From a virus (lineage: Duplodnaviria; Heunggongvirae; Uroviricota; Caudoviricetes), in IMG/VR virus record IMGVR_UViG_3300036876_000145, positions 83,489-102,462 of that record: a stretch of DNA of 18,974 nucleotides; one strand, 5' to 3'. Positions 2,640 through 9,762 of the stretch are shown here, in pieces (position 1 is the first letter of the stretch; the number at the start of each line of letters is the position of its first letter). The translations under genes were made by a program, and so were the position numbers. The notes beneath the pieces are model-generated. The model was given only the letters and a program-made list of their open reading frames with translations. It had not been told where the DNA came from and ran no database searches.

Positions 2640-2718
2640 ATTCCGATGGCGTGAGCGGCGAAACCACTTGCCCTACAAGCAAGTATCATCGGGGGTTCGA
2701 GTCCCTCTCGGAATACCA
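2640..2718 (+). tRNA. tRNA-Val(UAC)-like with aberrant D-arm and C33
   Basis: Perfect 7-bp acceptor (ATTCCGA/TCGGAAT), A73 and an encoded CCA. T-arm is GGGGG-TTCGAGT-CCCTC. Anticodon stem is CTTGC/GCAAG with loop CCTACAA, giving anticodon TAC. No convincing 4-bp D-stem could be found in 2649-2665. Confidence 0.45.
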
Positions 2719-2729
2719 AATTTTAATGT

Positions 2730-2804
2730 GTGGGTGTCGTCCAATGGGAGGACTTTCGGTTTGCACCCGGAGAATGCGAGTTCGAGTCTCGTCACTCTAC
2801 ACCA
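2730..2804 (+). tRNA. tRNA-Ala(UGC)
   Basis: Acceptor GTGGGTG has the G3:U70 Ala identity pair. D-stem is GTCC/GGAC. Anticodon stem is TTCGG/CCGGA with loop TTTGCAC. The T-loop is TTCGAGT and CCA is encoded. There are two mismatches at the base of the acceptor and one extra nt before the discriminator. Confidence 0.55.
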
Positions 2805-2896
2805 AATGTGCCGTCCGCGACGGTGATAGATACCAGAAAGCTCTTCGGAGCGCTGGAATGGGGATCAGCCCCTTAGTCATCGCGGCTAAATTTATA

Positions 2897-2970
2897 AGCG
2901 GATTAGCCAAGTGGTTAAAGGCATCTGCCTGCAAAGCAGACAAGCACGGGTTCGAATCCCGTATCCGCTT
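2897..2970 (+). tRNA. tRNA-Cys(GCA)
   Basis: Perfect 7-bp acceptor (AGCGGAT/ATCCGCT) with a U73 discriminator, as expected for Cys. Anticodon stem is TCTGC/GCAGA with loop CTGCAAA. T-arm is ACGGG-TTCGAAT-CCCGT. CCA is not encoded. Confidence 0.75.
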
Positions 2971-2979
2971 CCCAAATTT

Positions 2980-3056
2980 GGGGGTATAGTTCCAACTGGT
3001 AGAACAGCGGCTTGTCGCGCCGATGGTTGCGGGTTCGAATCCCGTTACCCCCGCCA
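2980..3056 (+). tRNA. tRNA-Asp(GUC) variant (anticodon loop TTGTCGC with G37)
   Basis: Acceptor is GGGGGTA/TACCCCC with G73 and encoded CCA. D-stem is GTTC/GAAC. The anticodon stem has 4 bp plus a G:A mismatch, and the anticodon is GTC. T-arm is GCGGG-TTCGAAT-CCCGT. Confidence 0.55.
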
Positions 3057-3060
3057 GTTT

Positions 3061-3138
3061 GGTGTGTTGGAGGAGTCTGGTCTTCCTCGCTTCCCTGTCA
3101 CGGAAGATATCACACGGGTTCAAATCCCGTACACACCG
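3061..3138 (+). tRNA. tRNA-Asp(GUC)
   Basis: Acceptor is GGTGTGT/ACACACC with G73. Anticodon stem is CTTCC/GGAAG with the canonical Asp loop CTGTCAC. T-arm is ACGGG-TTCAAAT-CCCGT. CCA is not encoded. Confidence 0.75.
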
Positions 3139-3147
3139 CTTTCGTGA

Positions 3148-3179
3148 CTTCCTGAGTATTAAGTAGAGTACTCAGGAAG
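3148..3179 (+). promoter_or_regulatory. 11-bp perfect inverted repeat (CTTCCTGAGTA ... TACTCAGGAAG) sequestering the SD of the GIY-YIG gene
   Basis: The 3' arm contains the AGGAAGG Shine-Dalgarno, and the ATG at 3184 lies 4 nt after the stem. The loop is TTAAGTAGAG. No T-tract follows, so this is not an intrinsic terminator. Confidence 0.5.
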
Positions 3180-3183
3180 GTTC

Positions 3184-3834
3184 ATGATGAAATACACAGT
3201 CTACAAAACTGTGAATCTGGTCAACGGCAAGTTCTACATCGGTGTCCACAAGACGGACAATCCGAATGATGACTACCTTGGTTCTGGGAAGTTCATCAAA
3301 CGAGCCGTTGCGAAGTACGGAGAGCAGAATTTTCGCAAGGAAATTTTGGCTGTCTTTGAAATCCAGAGAGAAGCTTTCGATCTCGAAAAGAAACTCGTGG
3401 TTGAAGCGAAAGTTGATCCACTGTGTTACAACCTGAAAGCTGGCGGTGAAGGTGGGTTTGACTGGATCAATCGTAAGGGATTGAATAACTCGAACGAGAA
3501 CGGCGTGAAAGGAAATCGGGTTACAATTGGAAAAATAAAAACTGACCCAAAGGTAAAGAAGCGATTTACTGACAGGATCAATCGAGTTAGACAGTATCGT
3601 ACTCAAGACTACAAAGCTCGAATTCCTTCGATGTTACAAAAGTGGACAGGACAGCATCATACCGCCGAGACAAAGGCTAGACTTAGCGAAACGCATAAAG
3701 GTAAGAGCAACGGACGCTTTGGAAAACAGTGGATGTATCATCTCGAATCGCAGAGATCAAAGCCTGTCTCACCGGACGAGATCAATAGCCACATTGAACA
3801 AGGTTGGTTGATTGGTCGCCGGATGAAATTTTAG
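3184..3834 (+). CDS. GIY-YIG homing endonuclease (Seg/I-TevI-like) with a C-terminal NUMOD3-like repeat
   Basis: The N-terminus YTVYKTVNLVNGKFYIGV carries the GIY..YIG motif with downstream R and E residues. The C-terminal TGQHHTAETKARLSETHKGKSNGRFGKQW resembles NUMOD3 DNA-binding repeats. The gene sits inside the tRNA array. Confidence 0.85.
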   Translation: MMKYTVYKTVNLVNGKFYIGVHKTDNPNDDYLGSGKFIKRAVAKYGEQNFRKEILAVFEIQREAFDLEKKLVVEAKVDPLCYNLKAGGEGGFDWINRKGLNNSNENGVKGNRVTIGKIKTDPKVKKRFTDRINRVRQYRTQDYKARIPSMLQKWTGQHHTAETKARLSETHKGKSNGRFGKQWMYHLESQRSKPVSPDEINSHIEQGWLIGRRMKF

Positions 3835-3841
3835 GAGAGAC

Positions 3842-4054
3842 GTGAAGATTCTCTACGATGAACAGCGGCATCTGATCACGGTGCCGTACTCGAAAGAGAA
3901 TCTACATGAAGCAGCGCGGCAGTTGGGTATTAAGCGTTGCTGGTTTCACAAAGACCACTACGACGTTCCTAAGAGAATGATGTCTCGGATGTCGGAGACG
4001 GTAGCAGAAAAAGTTTCGCCGCGTGAAGTTTTGAAGATCGTGCGCGGCAAGTAA
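3842..4054 (+). CDS. DUF4031-like small phage protein (70 aa, HYDVP motif)
   Basis: GTG start with a GGAGAGA SD. The sequence MKILYDEQRHLITVPYSKENLHEAARQLGIKRCWFHKDHYDVPKRMMSR matches my recollection of the DUF4031 pattern (..A..lGl.r.Wfq...HYDl). The family assignment is from memory, not from a search. Confidence 0.55.
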   Translation: MKILYDEQRHLITVPYSKENLHEAARQLGIKRCWFHKDHYDVPKRMMSRMSETVAEKVSPREVLKIVRGK

Positions 4055-4058
4055 GTTT

Positions 4059-4135
4059 GGATGGATAGCCAAGTAGGAAAGGCGCTCCCCTGCAAAGGGA
4101 GTCATGCGGGGGTTCAATTCCCTCTCCATCCTCCA
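4059..4135 (+). tRNA. tRNA-Cys(GCA), second divergent copy
   Basis: Perfect acceptor GGATGGA/TCCATCC with U73 and encoded CCA. Anticodon stem is CTCCC/GGGAG with loop CTGCAAA. T-arm is GGGGG-TTCAATT-CCCTC. Confidence 0.75.
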
Positions 4136-4530
4136 AATGTACCAGTTCGGGACAACCGCTGGCAGGAAGTTTCTGCGGGAGGGAAAGTTCGGGGCTTCAT
4201 AGAGTACCGTGCGGGGTAACTCCCCGGCGACGGCGCAAGCCGTTGACAATTAGAGCTACAGAGACGAGTCACAGAAGGTGTGCTTGGAAGCGCGTAAGAT
4301 TCACGTCGGTAGTGTTGATGTGAAATGCCCGACCAAGTCCCCTGATGTGGGTGAAACGAGCAATCTTCACGGGAAGCAAGTGCAAATAGGCTGACAGGAA
4401 CTACTCGTTCCGTTATGAATCAGCGGGTAGCATGCTTGAGCGTTGGAGTAATTCAACGCCTAGACGAATGGTTGTCGCCGCGCAAGCGGAACAGAACCCC
4501 GGCTAATAGGACTGGTACAAGTTTATGAGT
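4136..4530 (+). other. about 395-nt noncoding, GC-rich, hairpin-dense region (candidate structured RNA or long leader) between tRNA-Cys and the HNH gene
   Basis: There is no plausible ORF on either strand apart from a spurious minus-strand ORF overlapping the tRNA. Local stems are present, for example GGGGTAACTCCCC and GCGCAAGC. Confidence 0.25.
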
Positions 4531-4542
4531 TTTTGAACTATG

Positions 4543-4568
4543 AGCGACCTATATTAGAGAGGTCGCTC
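4543..4568 (+). promoter_or_regulatory. 8-bp inverted repeat (GAGCGACC ... GGTCGCTC) placing the HNH SD/start at the loop/3'-arm junction
   Basis: The loop is TATATTAGAG. The SD GAGAGG (4557-4562) straddles the loop and 3' arm. The GTG at 4569 immediately follows the stem. Confidence 0.45.
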
Positions 4569-5006
4569 GTGACAAGTCAAAAAGAAGTTCAAAGACAATT
4601 AGGAATGAGTCGAGGAACCGCCAACTACAGATTGGCGCGTCTTTTACTCTTCAAATACATGCAGCAAGCTGGGGCGGACAACTGTTTTCGCTGCGGTCTA
4701 AAGCTTGAAACGGTTGAAGATTTTAGTATTGAGCATAAAAAACCGTGGTTGTACGCATCCCCAGATTTATATTGGGATTTGGAAAATATTGCTTTTTCGC
4801 ATCGCGCATGTAATTCGGGCGCAGCTAGACAGATCAATAAGACCAAAATGAGTCTTAGATCAGTAGGACCGGAAGGAACAAGTTGGTGTACGGAACATAA
4901 ACAGTTTCTTTCAGTCGATGAATTTCAAAAAAATTCCGCTATTTGGAACGGCTTACAAAGGCAATGCAAAGAATGCCGACAAAAGCGAAATAAAAAGCGG
5001 GCTTAG
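4569..5006 (+). CDS. HNH homing endonuclease (HNH_3-like)
   Basis: CFRCG...EHKKPW...HRACN is an HNH motif. The preferred start is GTG 4569, which has GAGAGG 6 nt upstream; the track's longest ORF starts at TTG 4533. The last 10 nt overlap the 5' end of tRNA-Gly. Confidence 0.8.
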   Translation: MTSQKEVQRQLGMSRGTANYRLARLLLFKYMQQAGADNCFRCGLKLETVEDFSIEHKKPWLYASPDLYWDLENIAFSHRACNSGAARQINKTKMSLRSVGPEGTSWCTEHKQFLSVDEFQKNSAIWNGLQRQCKECRQKRNKKRA

Positions 5007-5073
5007 CTCACGCTGGTAGAGCGCTGGTCTTCCAAACCGGAGGTAACGGGATCGTCGCCCGTAGTCCGCTCCA
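4997..5073 (+). tRNA. tRNA-Gly(UCC) with an unusual T-loop (ATCGTCG)
   Basis: Acceptor is GCGGGCT/AGTCCGC (one G:U pair) with U73 and encoded CCA. D-stem is GCTC/GAGC. Anticodon stem is CTGGT/ACCGG with loop CTTCCAA. Confidence 0.65.
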
Positions 5074-5084
5074 AGTTTAGATAT

Positions 5085-5160
5085 GGCGCACTCTGCTAAC
5101 GGCTAGGCAACCACGTTCTCAGCGTGTGAAATGTGGGTTCAAATCCCGCGTGCGCTACCA
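5085..5160 (+). tRNA. tRNA-Glu(CUC)
   Basis: Acceptor is GGCGCAC/GTGCGCT with A73 and encoded CCA. D-stem is TGCT/GGCA. Anticodon stem is CCACG/CGTGT (4 bp) with loop TTCTCAG. T-arm is GTGGG-TTCAAAT-CCCGC. Confidence 0.6.
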
Positions 5161-5167
5161 GATTTTG

Positions 5168-5224
5168 GCTGACCATGTTCGGCAAGGTCAGCGGTTGGGG
5201 GACATGGCTCAGTACAACCGCTGA
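5168..5224 (+). other. pair of mutually exclusive hairpins (GCTGACC/GGTCAGC 7 bp; TCAGCGGTTG/CAACCGCTGA 10 bp) in a tRNA spacer
   Basis: The 3' arm of hairpin 1 (5186-5192) overlaps the 5' arm of hairpin 2 (5189-5198). The segment is not tRNA-like. Confidence 0.4.
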
Positions 5225-5231
5225 TAACCGT

Positions 5232-5307
5232 GGGGCTATGGCGCAGTTGGGAGCGCGTAATCATGGCATGATTAAGGCCGTCGGTTCGAACCCGACTAGC
5301 TCCACCA
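5232..5307 (+). tRNA. tRNA-Ala(GGC)
   Basis: Acceptor GGGGCTA/TAGCTCC has G3:U70, with A73 and encoded CCA. D-stem is GCGC/GCGC. Anticodon stem is TAATC/GATTA with loop ATGGCAT. T-arm is GTCGG-TTCGAAC-CCGAC. Confidence 0.75.
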
Positions 5308-5313
5308 GATTTT

Positions 5314-5388
5314 GCGGAAGTAGTTCAGCGGTAGAATATTTCCTTGCCAAGGAAGGGGTCGCGGGTTCAAATCCCGCCTTCCGCTCCA
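5314..5388 (+). tRNA. tRNA-Gly(GCC)
   Basis: Acceptor is GCGGAAG/CTTCCGC with U73 and encoded CCA. Anticodon stem is TTTCC/GGAAG with loop TTGCCAA. T-arm is GCGGG-TTCAAAT-CCCGC. Confidence 0.8.
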
Positions 5389-5399
5389 AGTTTAGAAGT

Positions 5400-5461
5400 T
5401 CATGGATGCCTAGATGTCGGTGGCTAACCGAAAGGTCGCGGGTTCAATGTCCGTTCCATGT
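5400..5461 (+). pseudogene. 62-nt tRNA-like element lacking a D-arm (pseudo-tRNA or armless tRNA)
   Basis: There is a 6-bp acceptor-like closing stem (CATGGA/TCCATG), an anticodon-like hairpin GTCGG-TGGCTAA-CCGAA, and a T-arm-like GCGGG-TTCAATG-TCCGT. Only 9 nt lie between the acceptor and the anticodon stem. There is no spacer before the next tRNA. Confidence 0.35.
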
Positions 5462-5537
5462 GGGGCTATAGCGCAGTTGGGAGCGCGTCTCGTTCGCAAC
5501 GAGAAGGTCGTGAGTTCGAATCTCACTAGCTCCACCA
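5462..5537 (+). tRNA. tRNA-Ala(CGC)
   Basis: Acceptor GGGGCTA/TAGCTCC has G3:U70, with A73 and encoded CCA. Anticodon stem is TCTCG/CGAGA with loop TTCGCAA. T-arm is GTGAG-TTCGAAT-CTCAC. Confidence 0.75.
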
Positions 5538-5544
5538 AGTTATT

Positions 5545-5617
5545 GCGGGTGTAGTTCAATGGTAGAATATTCGGTTCCCAACCGAAAGATTTGTCGGTTC
5601 GAGTCCGACCATCCGCT
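5545..5617 (+). tRNA. tRNA-Gly(CCC)
   Basis: Acceptor is GCGGGTG/CATCCGC with U73; CCA is not encoded. Anticodon stem is TTCGG/CCGAA with loop TTCCCAA. T-arm is GTCGG-TTCGAGT-CCGAC. Confidence 0.75.
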
Positions 5618-5624
5618 CCGTTTT

Positions 5625-5768
5625 ATGAGAGAGTGTCCAAAGTGCGGTAAGAAAGAACAATGGGAAATCGGTTGGATTTCTACTACCAATGAATGGCGCT
5701 GGCATTGTCTGTCTTGTGATATTCGTTTTAATGATGATGGCGTAATTTACACACCAGAAAAAGTTTAG
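5625..5768 (+). CDS. 47-aa zinc-ribbon protein (CPKCG ... CLSCD)
   Basis: ATG at 5625 is in frame with the track ORF 5559-5768, whose upstream part overlaps tRNA-Gly and is rejected. Two CxxC pairs are present: MRECPKCGKKEQWEIGWISTTNEWRWHCLSCDIRFNDDGVIYTPEKV. The SD is weak. Confidence 0.4.
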   Translation: MRECPKCGKKEQWEIGWISTTNEWRWHCLSCDIRFNDDGVIYTPEKV

Positions 5769-5791
5769 GGCCGTGGGACTGCATTGGGGTG

Positions 5792-5819
5792 GTTCGAATC
5801 TCACTAGCTCCACCAAGTT
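5792..5819 (+). repeat. 28-bp exact direct repeat of the 3' end of tRNA-Ala(CGC) (5514-5541), giving a 3' tRNA fragment with no 5' half
   Basis: GTTCGAATCTCACTAGCTCCACCAAGTT is identical at both sites. The upstream sequence at the second site cannot form a T-stem or an acceptor. Confidence 0.6.
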
Positions 5820-5822
5820 TAC

Positions 5823-5926
5823 GTAGGCTTCCGAGGGATACCTCGGTGACAGTTGTTCTGAGGTCATCTCTTCATGAGGGGCTGAACAGGGAACGGCAGC
5901 GTGGGGAAACCCACAAGCCTACACCA
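5823..5926 (+). ncRNA. 104-nt structured RNA of unknown class, closed by the 8-bp stem GTAGGCTT/AAGCCTAC and ending in ACCA
   Basis: The internal hairpins are perfect: CCGAGG-GATA-CCTCGG (6 bp, 4-nt loop) and GTGGG-GAAA-CCCAC (GNRA tetraloop). Its position in the array and its A-CCA end are tRNA-like, but there is no 7-nt T-loop. Confidence 0.35.
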
Positions 5927-5929
5927 TTT

Positions 5930-6005
5930 GCGCTGTTAGATTAGCGGTAAAATCGTCACCATGACAAGGTGAAAATCGGGGGTTCGATTCCCTCACGGCG
6001 CACCA
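5930..6005 (+). tRNA. tRNA-Val(GAC)
   Basis: Acceptor is GCGCTGT/ACGGCGC with A73 and encoded CCA. D-stem is GATT/AATC. Anticodon stem is TCACC/GGTGA with loop ATGACAA. T-arm is GGGGG-TTCGATT-CCCTC. Confidence 0.75.
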
Positions 6006-6017
6006 GTTTTTAAATAT

Positions 6018-6095
6018 GGCGTTGTCTTCTAAATGGTCTAGGAAAACTGACTTTCAATCAGTGGAATGCCGGTTCAACTCCGGTCAACGCTACCA
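6018..6095 (+). tRNA. tRNA-Glu(UUC)
   Basis: Acceptor is GGCGTTG/CAACGCT with A73 and encoded CCA. Anticodon stem is ACTGA/TCAGT with loop CTTTCAA. T-arm is GCCGG-TTCAACT-CCGGT. Confidence 0.75.
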
Positions 6096-6102
6096 GAATT
6101 GA

Positions 6103-6177
6103 GAGGGAGTAGCTCAGCGGTAGAGCAGAATATTGCCAATATTCAGGTCGCGGGTTCAACTCCCGTCTCCCTCTCCA
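6103..6177 (+). tRNA. tRNA-Gly(GCC), second copy
   Basis: Acceptor is GAGGGAG/CTCCCTC with U73 and encoded CCA. D-stem is GCTC/GAGC. Anticodon stem is GAATA/TATTC with loop TTGCCAA. T-arm is GCGGG-TTCAACT-CCCGT. Confidence 0.75.
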
Positions 6178-6372
6178 ACATTTATGCGAATCTATTCAAA
6201 AGTTTATTTTCGCTTTATGGTGTGTTATGAGAAAACTAAAGAGACTAAGCAAGGTCAAACTCGTGAAGGAAATGTCCAGGGAGAGGGTGCCAGTCCCCGC
6301 GACCCGCAAGATTGAAAATAAGAAAAAGAAATTTTTGCGTTACTTAGAAACACATTGGCAGGAAGATGAATT

Positions 6373-6448
6373 GGGGGTATAGCTCAGCTGGGAGAGCGCA
6401 TCGTTTGCAACGATGAGGTCGTCGGTTCGATCCCGTCTACCTCCACCA
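6373..6448 (+). tRNA. tRNA-Ala(UGC), bacterial-type (5' end GGGGGTATAGCTCAGCTGGGAGAGCGC)
   Basis: Acceptor GGGGGTA/TACCTCC has G3:U70, with A73 and encoded CCA. Anticodon stem is CATCG/CGATG with loop TTTGCAA. The T-loop is TTCGATC. Confidence 0.8.
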
Positions 6449-7027: not shown

Positions 7028-7032
7028 CATGC

Positions 7033-7066
7033 GGTATTATAGATAATGGGGTATTATAGATAATGG
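7033..7066 (+). repeat. tandem direct repeat, 2 x 17 bp GGTATTATAGATAATGG, plus a partial third copy (GGTACTTAT), in the leader of the phosphoesterase gene
   Basis: Read directly from the sequence. Each unit carries TATTAT and TAGATAAT, which are -10-like elements. Confidence 0.6.
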
Positions 7067-7073
7067 GGTACTT

Positions 7074-7938: not shown

Positions 7939-7956
7939 ACGGTAGTTGAGGAGCGC

Positions 7957-7978
7957 AATCCCAGACTTTTAGTCTGGG
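7957..7978 (+). repeat. hairpin repeat copy 1: AATCCCAGACT-ttt-AGTCTGGG (8-bp perfect stem)
   Basis: A near-identical copy lies at 8180-8201. No T-tract follows. Confidence 0.6.
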
Positions 7979-8014
7979 CTAGCGAATGCCTTTGACTTTA
8001 GAAAGGAGGACACA

Positions 8015-8170: not shown

Positions 8171-8438
8171 CCGTTCAGGAATCCCAGACTTCAAGTCTGG
8201 GAGCATCAATAACGACCCTAAACTCGTAGCACTGGCTATACTTGTTCGAAAATACGGCACCAAAATATCTGGGGGTGCATACGAAATTTTCATTACCAGT
8301 GAAGATTTTGCAGATTTTTCTTCATTCGGTGAATTGGTTGAGACGAAGGATGAAGAACGCAAAAGACTCAGTTTGCGTTATTATCCTAATCCTACAATTG
8401 AAGGTGAAGGTGGACTTATTGAATCGACCGGGGGTTAA
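8142..8438 (+). CDS. hypothetical protein (track ORF, 98 aa); the start is doubtful
   Basis: The only ATG lies inside the TnpB-like fragment. The acidic C-terminal half has a plausible codon structure. Confidence 0.2.
   Translation: MPSRVTLMCSRSGIPDFKSGSINNDPKLVALAILVRKYGTKISGGAYEIFITSEDFADFSSFGELVETKDEERKRLSLRYYPNPTIEGEGGLIESTGG
8180..8201 (+). repeat. hairpin repeat copy 2: AATCCCAGACT-tca-AGTCTGGG
   Basis: Direct repeat of the 7957-7978 hairpin. Together they bracket the TnpB-like fragment, in an arrangement like the left and right end hairpins of an IS200/IS605 element. Confidence 0.6.
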
Positions 8439-9023: not shown

Positions 9024-9078
9024 TAGAATCAACAACTTCAGACTTTTTAACTTTAGGTTTCTTGAGTAGGAGAAACCT

Positions 9079-9762
9079 ATGTTCAATTACATCCCTACTT
9101 CCAGGTTAGCTGCCTCATCCGTTTCTCCCCTAAAAACAGCCCCCCGATTTAGAAGTGACCTATTACTCCCAAAAAATAAAAATTGGGCTCAAAGTGTAAA
9201 TTATCTTCGTGATTTTTATACAGATATTCAATTACTCTGGGGTGTTCATGAATCTGAGTCCAACGATCCTTACGACCCAGAGAAAGATAGACAAATTTTT
9301 AAAAAACTAGAGCCTATGCTCCACGAATTGATTCTTGGGATGGATGGAGTATCCAAAGAGCGTACTCAGCGTATGGATATTGCTAAGGCTATTCAAACGG
9401 CTATTTACGATTTCGAAACAGCAACTACTTATGCTCAAACTACAGATTATGCGATGGCGTTAGTATATTTTAATTATGCTTTGGATAGAATTCATTACCA
9501 ACTTGACAGTTTGACAATTGAAGCAAATAAAGAAAACAGTAGTAGGAAGTTGGGTTACGGGTATGACACATCAGGAAATATTGGGGAACAAGGTGGAACT
9601 AGCGGAAACGATAGACATCAATGGGATACCGGGAATTCACCAAAACTCGATAGAACCCCAATGAATCCAGCTAATATGGGAGATTTTGAAGCAGAAAATG
9701 ACTACCCTGAACTTGCAAAATTTAAACATAAAAGAGTATTTTGGCCGCCGCGTACACGATAA
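9079..9762 (+). CDS. hypothetical protein (227 aa)
   Basis: ATG has a TAGGAGAAACC SD. There are no recognisable motifs. It lies immediately upstream of the fibre gene block, so it could be a chaperone or assembly protein. Confidence 0.65.
   Translation: MFNYIPTSRLAASSVSPLKTAPRFRSDLLLPKNKNWAQSVNYLRDFYTDIQLLWGVHESESNDPYDPEKDRQIFKKLEPMLHELILGMDGVSKERTQRMDIAKAIQTAIYDFETATTYAQTTDYAMALVYFNYALDRIHYQLDSLTIEANKENSSRKLGYGYDTSGNIGEQGGTSGNDRHQWDTGNSPKLDRTPMNPANMGDFEAENDYPELAKFKHKRVFWPPRTR

Follow-up and report, generated by a model that had tools for sequence, protein, structure and literature searches.

A hairpin over the ribosome-binding site, combined with a late promoter, is common to I-TevI, I-TevII, I-TevIII, segB and Aeh1 mobE (Edgell, Gibb and Belfort, PMC2988022). 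For segB of phage T4, a hairpin of -20.2 kcal/mol holding the Shine-Dalgarno (SD) sequence and the start codon in its stem was predicted, and the segB mRNA was described as a part of a tRNA precursor which is cut during tRNA maturation (Brok-Volchanskaya et al., PMC2330249). The SegB type is defined by cleavage of tRNA-gene DNA (GGTTCRANTCC) and by preferential inheritance in co-infection (PMC2330249). In the present analysis, two homing endonuclease genes and the hairpins in front of them were investigated in a stretch of 18,974 nucleotides (nt) from a virus of the Caudoviricetes (IMG/VR virus record IMGVR_UViG_3300036876_000145, positions 83,489 to 102,462), hereafter called the window. Both genes lie in an array of tRNA genes, and both start codons are enclosed in a predicted stem together with all or part of the SD sequence. 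The two hairpins represent a well-documented new example of the control device known from T4 segB and involve no new mechanism.

The first gene, with ATG 3184 or ATG 3187 as start codon, codes for a protein with the N-terminal motif ..YTVYK..FYIGVHK (coordinates of the features are collected in Table 1). Matches were obtained to Pfam NUMOD3 (21.0 bits, cut-off 20.4), to SegE_GIY-YIG slightly below its cut-off (23.4 bits, cut-off 25) and to PHROG 314 'homing endonuclease' (2.5e-43). In tblastn comparisons, T4-type segB showed 37–38% identity over 100% of the query with E about 1e-35 (RB32/RB33 segB: 37.2% over 100% of the query, E 6e-35), and 379 phage records matched at least 80% of the query. 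By its domains, its full-length similarity and its location in a tRNA cluster, the gene fits the SegB type, as far as can be judged from sequence. The second gene codes for an HNH protein (Pfam HNH, 24.1 bits, cut-off 21.4; PHROG 23251, 2e-23). Its identity to annotated HNH homing endonucleases from cultured phages is 41–57%, over only 55–67% of the query, and its homologues have ATG at the position of GTG 4569, in agreement with the start chosen in the first-pass annotation. No group I intron model matched in the window and the flanking tRNAs are complete. Both genes are therefore free-standing, and their earlier assignment as free-standing GIY-YIG and HNH endonucleases was confirmed.

Upstream of the SegB-like gene, the preceding tRNA has no encoded CCA and its 3' trailer leads directly into the 5' arm of hairpin 1. 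The upper stem of this hairpin is formed by positions 3148–3158 (CTTCCTGAGTA) and 3169–3179 (TACTCAGGAAG), i.e. eleven perfect pairs with 10 nt in between and AGGAAGG in the 3' arm, exactly as the first-pass annotation had described it. In the minimum-energy fold, the pairs U3159.G3168 and U3160-A3167 are added, leaving a 6-nt loop AAGUAG (3161–3166). A lower stem (3142–3147 with 3182–3187, following a 2-nt bulge at 3180–3181) encloses AUG 3184; the fold is hence larger than first reported, the start codon being paired as well. Hairpin 2, in front of the HNH gene, was also found to be real, with GAGAGG spanning the junction of loop and 3' arm as claimed; its stem had been given as 8 base pairs (bp), and in fact 9 bp are perfect (4542–4550, GAGCGACCT, with 4560–4568, AGGTCGCTC) and 12 are reached with the pairs U.G, A-U and U.G (4539–4541 with 4569–4571) that enclose the GUG start. 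Similarly, the loop length of 10 nt stated for both hairpins holds for the gap between the arms of hairpin 1, and the loop of hairpin 2 (4551–4559) has 9 nt. The folding check proposed for both genes gave stable hairpins, and in neither case was any of 200 shuffled sequences as stable. The energy required to open the region from -14 to +3 amounts to 21.4 kcal/mol for the SegB-like gene and 17.0 kcal/mol for the HNH gene, compared with 2.7–6.4 kcal/mol for five ordinary genes of the window. The start of the small DUF4031 open reading frame (ORF) located after the SegB-like gene is ordinary and unoccluded (5.7 kcal/mol).

The same arrangement is seen in T4-type phages. In RB32, segB stands between tRNA-Ile, which it directly follows, and tRNA-Arg within a tRNA cluster; in its folded leader, the 3' arm contains AGGAG and AUG, and the 5' arm contains CATAAATA. 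The segB homologue of Acinetobacter phage Henu6 is located just 3' of a tRNA and has a hairpin over SD and AUG whose 5' arm includes a perfect TATAAATA. The gene studied here shares with T4 segB a homologous full-length protein, the position in a tRNA array immediately behind a tRNA, and a 5' hairpin enclosing SD and AUG; an mRNA contained in a tRNA precursor, as in T4, would be a further likeness. In contrast, the sequence of the T4 segB hairpin is unrelated to that of this clade, and instead of the (T/C)ATAAATA late-promoter box in the 5' arm of T4-type segB hairpins, GTATTA/AGTAGAG is found at the arm/loop junction. In I-TevI, I-TevII, I-TevIII and Aeh1 mobE, a stable hairpin likewise sequesters the ribosome-binding site on read-through transcripts (PMC2988022). 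The mobE gene is a free-standing HNH endonuclease gene like the one at 4569, whereas the I-Tev genes are intron-encoded, in contrast to both genes of the window. For the I-Tev genes and mobE, promoter and transcript starts were mapped and a temporal switch was shown; here, a promoter is proposed from sequence and for the SegB-like gene only. The first-pass annotation had counted both hairpins among the occluding structures of T4 I-TevI and seg genes. This view is upheld by the full-length SegB homology, the same position, the hairpin over SD and AUG and, for the SegB-like gene, strong covariation.

In order to follow the hairpin across relatives, 12 distinct SegB-like loci were gathered from protein- and pattern-based scans of IMG/VR, plus one contig reached via HNH homologues (related loci and contigs are designated by L numbers). 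L025 was left out of the set, as its flank pattern matches with no GIY-YIG gene downstream. An exact 14-mer scan of IMG/VR for AGTATTAAGTAGAG, the junction sequence of hairpin 1, was uninformative, yielding chance hits among the matches listed. All 12 SegB-like genes are located directly 3' of a tRNA and are preceded by TCGTGACT...GGTTCATGA. For the covariation alignment, the register was anchored at the stem base and the loops were replaced by a fixed linker. Standard pairs occupy 98.0% of the 204 cells, against 79.4% in shuffles, and none of 500 shuffles reached the observed value. Compensatory, two-sided changes were detected in 10 of the 17 pairs, and sliding the partner by 1–3 columns as a control reduced pairing to 38–46%. 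In L024, the upper stem is replaced entirely (CTACCGACCTC/GAGGTCGGTAG) and pairing is still perfect. The upper stems of the first 11 sequences contain 17 wobble pairs, every one of which is G.U when read on the + strand, and the hairpin is therefore a structure of the sense transcript and not a DNA palindrome. The high degree of pairing, the compensatory changes and the sense-strand wobbles together demonstrate that the SegB-like hairpin is a selected mRNA structure. The segment GGTTCATGA (3182–3187 and equivalents), between SD and coding region, is near invariant while the upper stem varies; the sole exception, L002, has C for A as a compensated change. The first six bases of GGTTCATGA equal the tRNA T-loop box GGTTCR of T4 SegB recognition (PMC2330249), a match too short to be relied on.

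A database search with the HNH protein yielded 33 homologues, and every contig fetched turned out to have them in a tRNA array. Homologues with 57–83% identity follow the RNase P RNA gene (window, L039), tRNA-Gly(UCC) (L038, L040/41) or stand in other tRNA contexts (L043, L044); insertion sites that vary among relatives are the mark of mobility of an HNH homing endonuclease. The hairpin with the start codon in the stem is retained in L038, L039, L040/41 and L044, whose HNH proteins are 60–83% identical. The homologue in L043 has a different hairpin, which occludes GGAGGG, and no start hairpin was found for the homologue in L045/46 (48% identity). Since the 5' arm accompanies the HNH gene with either upstream neighbour, RNase P RNA (window, L039) or tRNA-Gly (L038, L040), the hairpin belongs to the mobile cassette. 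At the other end of the cassette, the HNH stop codon (TAG 5004–5006) lies inside the downstream tRNA-Gly, and a similar overlap of 21 nt is present in L038 and L040/41. Cleavage by RNase P at the 5' end of this tRNA would make the HNH mRNA non-stop. This parallels T4 segB, in which a cut made during tRNA-Arg maturation separates the last codon from the stop codon (PMC2330249).

Both loops end in TAGAG (3164–3168 and 4555–4559), as had been noted, and this shared motif had been taken for a possible promoter or processing signal. The suggestion was not borne out. TAGAG is not an enriched signal in the window, where 27 matches would be expected and 20 were counted. Hexamer enrichment was calculated at 16 clade loci for the 45-nt segments that precede ORFs of 90 codons or more. 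TAGAGG was the most enriched upstream hexamer (12–13 observed, about 1.7 expected, p 8e-8) and lies 6–9 nt from the start in 9 of 13 cases, several of these ORFs being other endonucleases. Because of this position before clade start codons, TAGAG in hairpin 2 is read as the ribosome-binding site, i.e. the UA+GAGG motif of these cassettes, and not as a separate signal. The loops of the HNH family (ATATTAGAG, TTATATAGGG, TTAGTTAGAG, TTTTATAGAG) are each followed by GG(T), and their conserved part consists of UA and the SD sequence GAGG, 6–7 nt before the start. In the SegB-like family, TAGAG belongs to the loop block [A/T]AGTAGAG, which is located 13–25 nt from AUG, with a second SD in the 3' arm. 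Nine of the first 11 loops retain this block, which persists even when the stem has been exchanged. The loop TAG was also considered as the stop codon of a leader ORF and rejected, the only ORFs ending there being ones that overlap tRNA genes.

From these data, both hairpins are probably mRNA structures that block initiation on a precursor RNA and keep the endonucleases scarce. Judging from the layout, the two genes would be read within a long precursor together with tRNAs and RNase P RNA, and are presumably co-transcribed with the flanking RNA genes. On such a precursor, SD and start codon would be locked in the stem and ribosomes would hardly initiate. The block would keep the nuclease scarce and the ribosomes off an RNA that needs processing. 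For the SegB-like gene only, an internal promoter at GTATTA may lift the block, a proposal that is tentative and somewhat doubtful. The GTATTA box would start a transcript at about 3168–3170, in the first bases of the 3' arm of hairpin 1; lacking the 5' arm, this transcript could not form the stem, and the SD would be exposed. This would correspond to the logic of T4 I-TevI with a different promoter. Alternatively, the hairpin would act as a permanent throttle, as proposed for T4 segB.

GTATTA is enriched upstream of ORFs at the same 16 loci (16 observed, 2.1 expected, p 1.7e-10): 16 of its 52 occurrences fall in the 45-nt upstream segments, which make up 4.1% of the sequence. Two classes were distinguished, one with GTATTA 6–8 nt before ATG and no SD, the other with GTATTA 16–22 nt before ATG and an SD in between. 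The putative promoters of the tRNA arrays in L023 and L024 (GTTTAC-17-TATTAT) and in the window fit a -10-type hexamer TATTAN. That of the window, at 2416–2462, is a sigma-70-like TTGACA-17-TAATAT upstream of the array and is followed by AGTATTAAGG / AGTATTAAGGTATAGAG; AGTATTAAGGTATAGAG closely resembles the hairpin 1 junction AGTATTAAGTAGAG. GTATTA also occurs in each copy of a tandem direct repeat (GGTATTATAGATAATGGG, two copies, 7032–7067) directly before a metallophosphoesterase gene (ATG 7074). The earlier idea that the ribosome-binding site is exposed in late transcripts is not supported as it was written: the T4 late promoter TATAAATA shows no excess and none is found near the hairpins. 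No + strand match to a sigma-70 promoter was obtained at either hairpin.

Several points weigh against the reading of the hairpins as a block on the precursor that an internal promoter may lift. Repression of translation is suggested by folding energies and by analogy with described systems. For the HNH hairpin, conservation is clear (95% pairing) and covariation is not significant, variation being too small: one double change was detected and 169 of 500 shuffles reached the observed score. As regards the internal promoter, the GTATTA element of hairpin 1 has no -35 box, and only 5 of the 12 SegB-like hairpins contain GTATTA in its exact form; most of the others have the variants GTATC[CT] or GTATTC, and L024 has none. 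In the HNH loop, a start 7 nt past the -10-like TATATT would delete the SD. The AGTAGAG block is better conserved than GTATTA, which a promoter does not explain, and no promoter is mapped near T4 segB (PMC2330249).

A block at the arm/loop junction, made up of GTATTA and [A/T]AGTAG(A/G)G, recurs among these large uncultured phages in the start-occluding hairpins of unrelated genes, namely the SegB-like GIY-YIG genes, a second GIY-YIG gene and an uncharacterised ORF, and a GTATTA variant was detected in one HNH homologue, L044. Conceivably, this block serves for recognition, either by an RNA-binding factor or as part of a clade-specific promoter that is -35-independent, so that expression would be timed by starting the RNA, or opening it, within the hairpin; this is considered unlikely. 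If true, it would represent a second, independently evolved 'promoter within the hairpin' switch of the T4 type, tied to the tRNA/RNase P RNA operons of phages with their own RNase P RNA.

Among the alternatives, the one that survives best takes the conserved and exposed loop purines (A)AGUAGAG(G) as an SD-like 'standby' site, at which the 30S subunit would dock until the stem breathes; the hairpin would then tune translation to a low level and not act as a switch. The loop block resembles UAAGGAGG and is kept where the stem is fully replaced (L024). In L005, L006 and L024, whose proximal SD is weak, the loop contains a strong GAGG/GGGG, and TAGAGG is the usual SD of the clade. Moreover, the distance to AUG, variable between 15 and 25 nt, rules out a direct SD role and not a standby role. 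However, the argument is purely sequence-based and the window's own loop has only GAG. A standby site, which is rated quite unlikely, would be compatible with the blocking of initiation on the precursor and not exclusive of it.

A poorer prospect, with little probability in its favour, is that the hairpins are elements of RNA processing or stability (a site for an RNase III-type or other endonuclease at which the tRNA/RNase P RNA precursors are cut free of the mRNA, or a 5' stabiliser), in which case occlusion of the SD would be incidental or relieved by cleavage. Both stand at the boundary of a structured RNA gene and an ORF (tRNA end 3139, RNase P RNA end 4522), hairpin 1 with its approximately 19 pairs and small bulge is long enough for an RNase III-like enzyme, the segB mRNA of T4 is cut during tRNA maturation (PMC2330249), and the conserved loop block [A/T]AGTAGAG could serve as a recognition site. 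Yet the stems are built on SD, spacer and start in every family, unrelated cassettes included, a design for which processing has no need, and the loop sequence is not read by RNase III.

An action of the inverted repeats as DNA (operator for a dimeric repressor or for autorepression by the endonuclease, cruciform, or target site) is very improbable. I-TevI does autorepress via an operator overlapping its promoter (PMC2988022), and in the SegB-like family neither flank, TCGTGACT or GGTTCATGA, varies appreciably. Nevertheless, the sense-strand G.U wobbles correspond to A.C mismatches on the other strand and would break the symmetry of a palindrome, and a stem that is free to change in sequence while pairing is kept is the signature of an RNA structure; a DNA palindrome or operator was rejected on these grounds. 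Finally, intrinsic terminators or attenuators closing the preceding RNA gene have next to no likelihood: the hairpins do follow directly after a tRNA gene and the RNase P RNA gene, but both stems lack a U-tract behind them (the next bases are GGUUCAUGAUG for hairpin 1 and ACAAGUC for hairpin 2), and neither was picked up in a terminator scan that detected the canonical terminator at 2593–2620.

Table 1. Features of the tRNA array and of the start-occluding hairpins in the window.
Feature	Position	Strand	Remarks
tRNA gene	3061..3139	+	ARAGORN; Rfam tRNA 50.8 bits
Hairpin 1, complete	3142..3187	+	fold -24.7 kcal/mol, z -5.7
GTATTAA, -10-like element, candidate internal promoter	3156..3162	+	5' arm/loop junction of hairpin 1; putative function
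TAGAG in loop block [A/T]AGTAGAG, SegB-like family	3164..3168	+	SD-like, 15 nt from AUG
SD sequence AGGAAGG of the GIY-YIG gene	3174..3180	+	in the 3' arm of hairpin 1, fully paired
SegB-like GIY-YIG/NUMOD3 homing endonuclease, 216 amino acids	3184..3834	+	Pfam, PHROG, tblastn
DUF4031 small ORF, after the GIY-YIG gene	3842..4054	+	Pfam DUF4031, 1.3e-12
tRNA	4059..4135		downstream of the GIY-YIG gene
Class A RNase P RNA gene	4139..4522	+	Rfam RF00010, 169 bits (gathering score 100), E 2.5e-53
Hairpin 2	4539..4571	+	12-bp stem, 9-nt loop AUAUUAGAG; fold -22.1 kcal/mol, z -4.5
SD sequence GAGAGG of the HNH gene	4557..4562	+	spans loop/3' arm junction, 6 nt before GUG
HNH homing endonuclease, 145 amino acids, GTG start	4569..5006	+	Pfam HNH; PHROG 23251
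tRNA-Gly(UCC)	4997..5073	+	overlaps last codons and stop codon of the HNH ORF
Third start-occluding hairpin (TAGGTTTCT / AGAAACCTA, loop UGAGUAGG)	9054..9081	+	before ORF 9079-9762

The array comprises 16 tRNA genes on the + strand (2640–6448; ARAGORN, Rfam), with three ORFs and an RNA gene lying between them. Directly ahead of the first tRNA, at 2593–2620, stands a hairpin of canonical terminator type with its U-tract. Neither the array nor the large ORFs had a megablast match among 50,697 phage records. A comparison of one neighbouring gene places Tunturiibacter phage Tunturi_5 (45% identity) and phiCbK-like Caulobacter phages nearest among cultured relatives; to judge from it, the phage carrying the array is not T4-like.

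The RNA gene in the array is a full-length RNase P RNA gene of the bacterial class A (model positions 1–367), located directly upstream of hairpin 2. RNase P RNA was also identified in L039 (143–455, 208 bits) and in L006 (3732–4106, 141 bits), one of them being an IMG/VR viral contig. No similar sequence was obtained by blastn of this RNA against the 50,697 phage records, and no account of an RNase P RNA encoded by a phage came up in a literature search.

Similar structures are found before other endonuclease genes of related genomes, as the proposal in the first-pass annotation had implied: in the clade, a second GIY-YIG gene and two PD-(D/E)XK genes also have start-occluding hairpins. Further endonuclease cassettes were observed in related arrays, namely in L001 (346–1041), in L006 (4802–5428, 8824–9426 and 9704–10351) and, as GIY-YIG ORFs, in L015 and L024. 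Their types include the second GIY-YIG/NUMOD3, two PD-(D/E)XK (PDDEXK_5) with a helix-turn-helix and another HNH-like ORF; most have a hairpin over the SD or the start codon, and many have TAGAGG 6–9 nt before the start.

In the window itself, a third start-occluding hairpin precedes an ORF of 227 amino acids (9079–9762) which gave no Pfam, PHROG or phage database match and which overlaps the TTG start, at 9741, of an ORF of 868 amino acids. Its SD, AGGAG, is located at the loop/arm junction, and the opening energy is 11.8 kcal/mol. The hairpin is kept with compensatory changes in L047, a 332-kilobase IMG/VR contig (GGTTCTC..GAGAACC, loop containing AAGTAGGAG), and the predicted role of the loop motif as ribosome-binding site extends to it. 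As this hairpin stands before a non-endonuclease ORF, start occlusion is not restricted to endonucleases in this phage; likewise, the T4 late genes soc, e, 25 and 26 have structures that sequester the ribosome-binding site on early polycistronic RNA (PMC2988022). A phage sigma factor, suggested for ORF 9079–9762 by synteny with Tunturi_5 gp211, was rejected, no similarity being found. Around 855–900, the putative start GTG 898 of an N6/N4 DNA methylase ORF, whose true start codon is uncertain, has an opening energy of 13.3 kcal/mol with GAGGAAG paired. Two more hairpins (7954–7984 and 8182–8202) have the common core CCCAGACT/AGTCTGGG and may represent an element repeated between genes.

These findings leave the current view of the control of such endonuclease genes unchanged, and more unusual than the hairpins is the full-length RNase P RNA gene in a phage tRNA array. 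The package known from segB, a GIY-YIG gene in a tRNA array with a hairpin throttle at its start site, has spread beyond the T4-like phages and is now found in a distant group of large environmental phages, where the RNA structure was kept by selection and the sequence was rebuilt. This provides comparative support for a mechanism which rests on prediction for T4 segB itself, and annotators gain a recognisable signature of homing-endonuclease cassettes in tRNA arrays.

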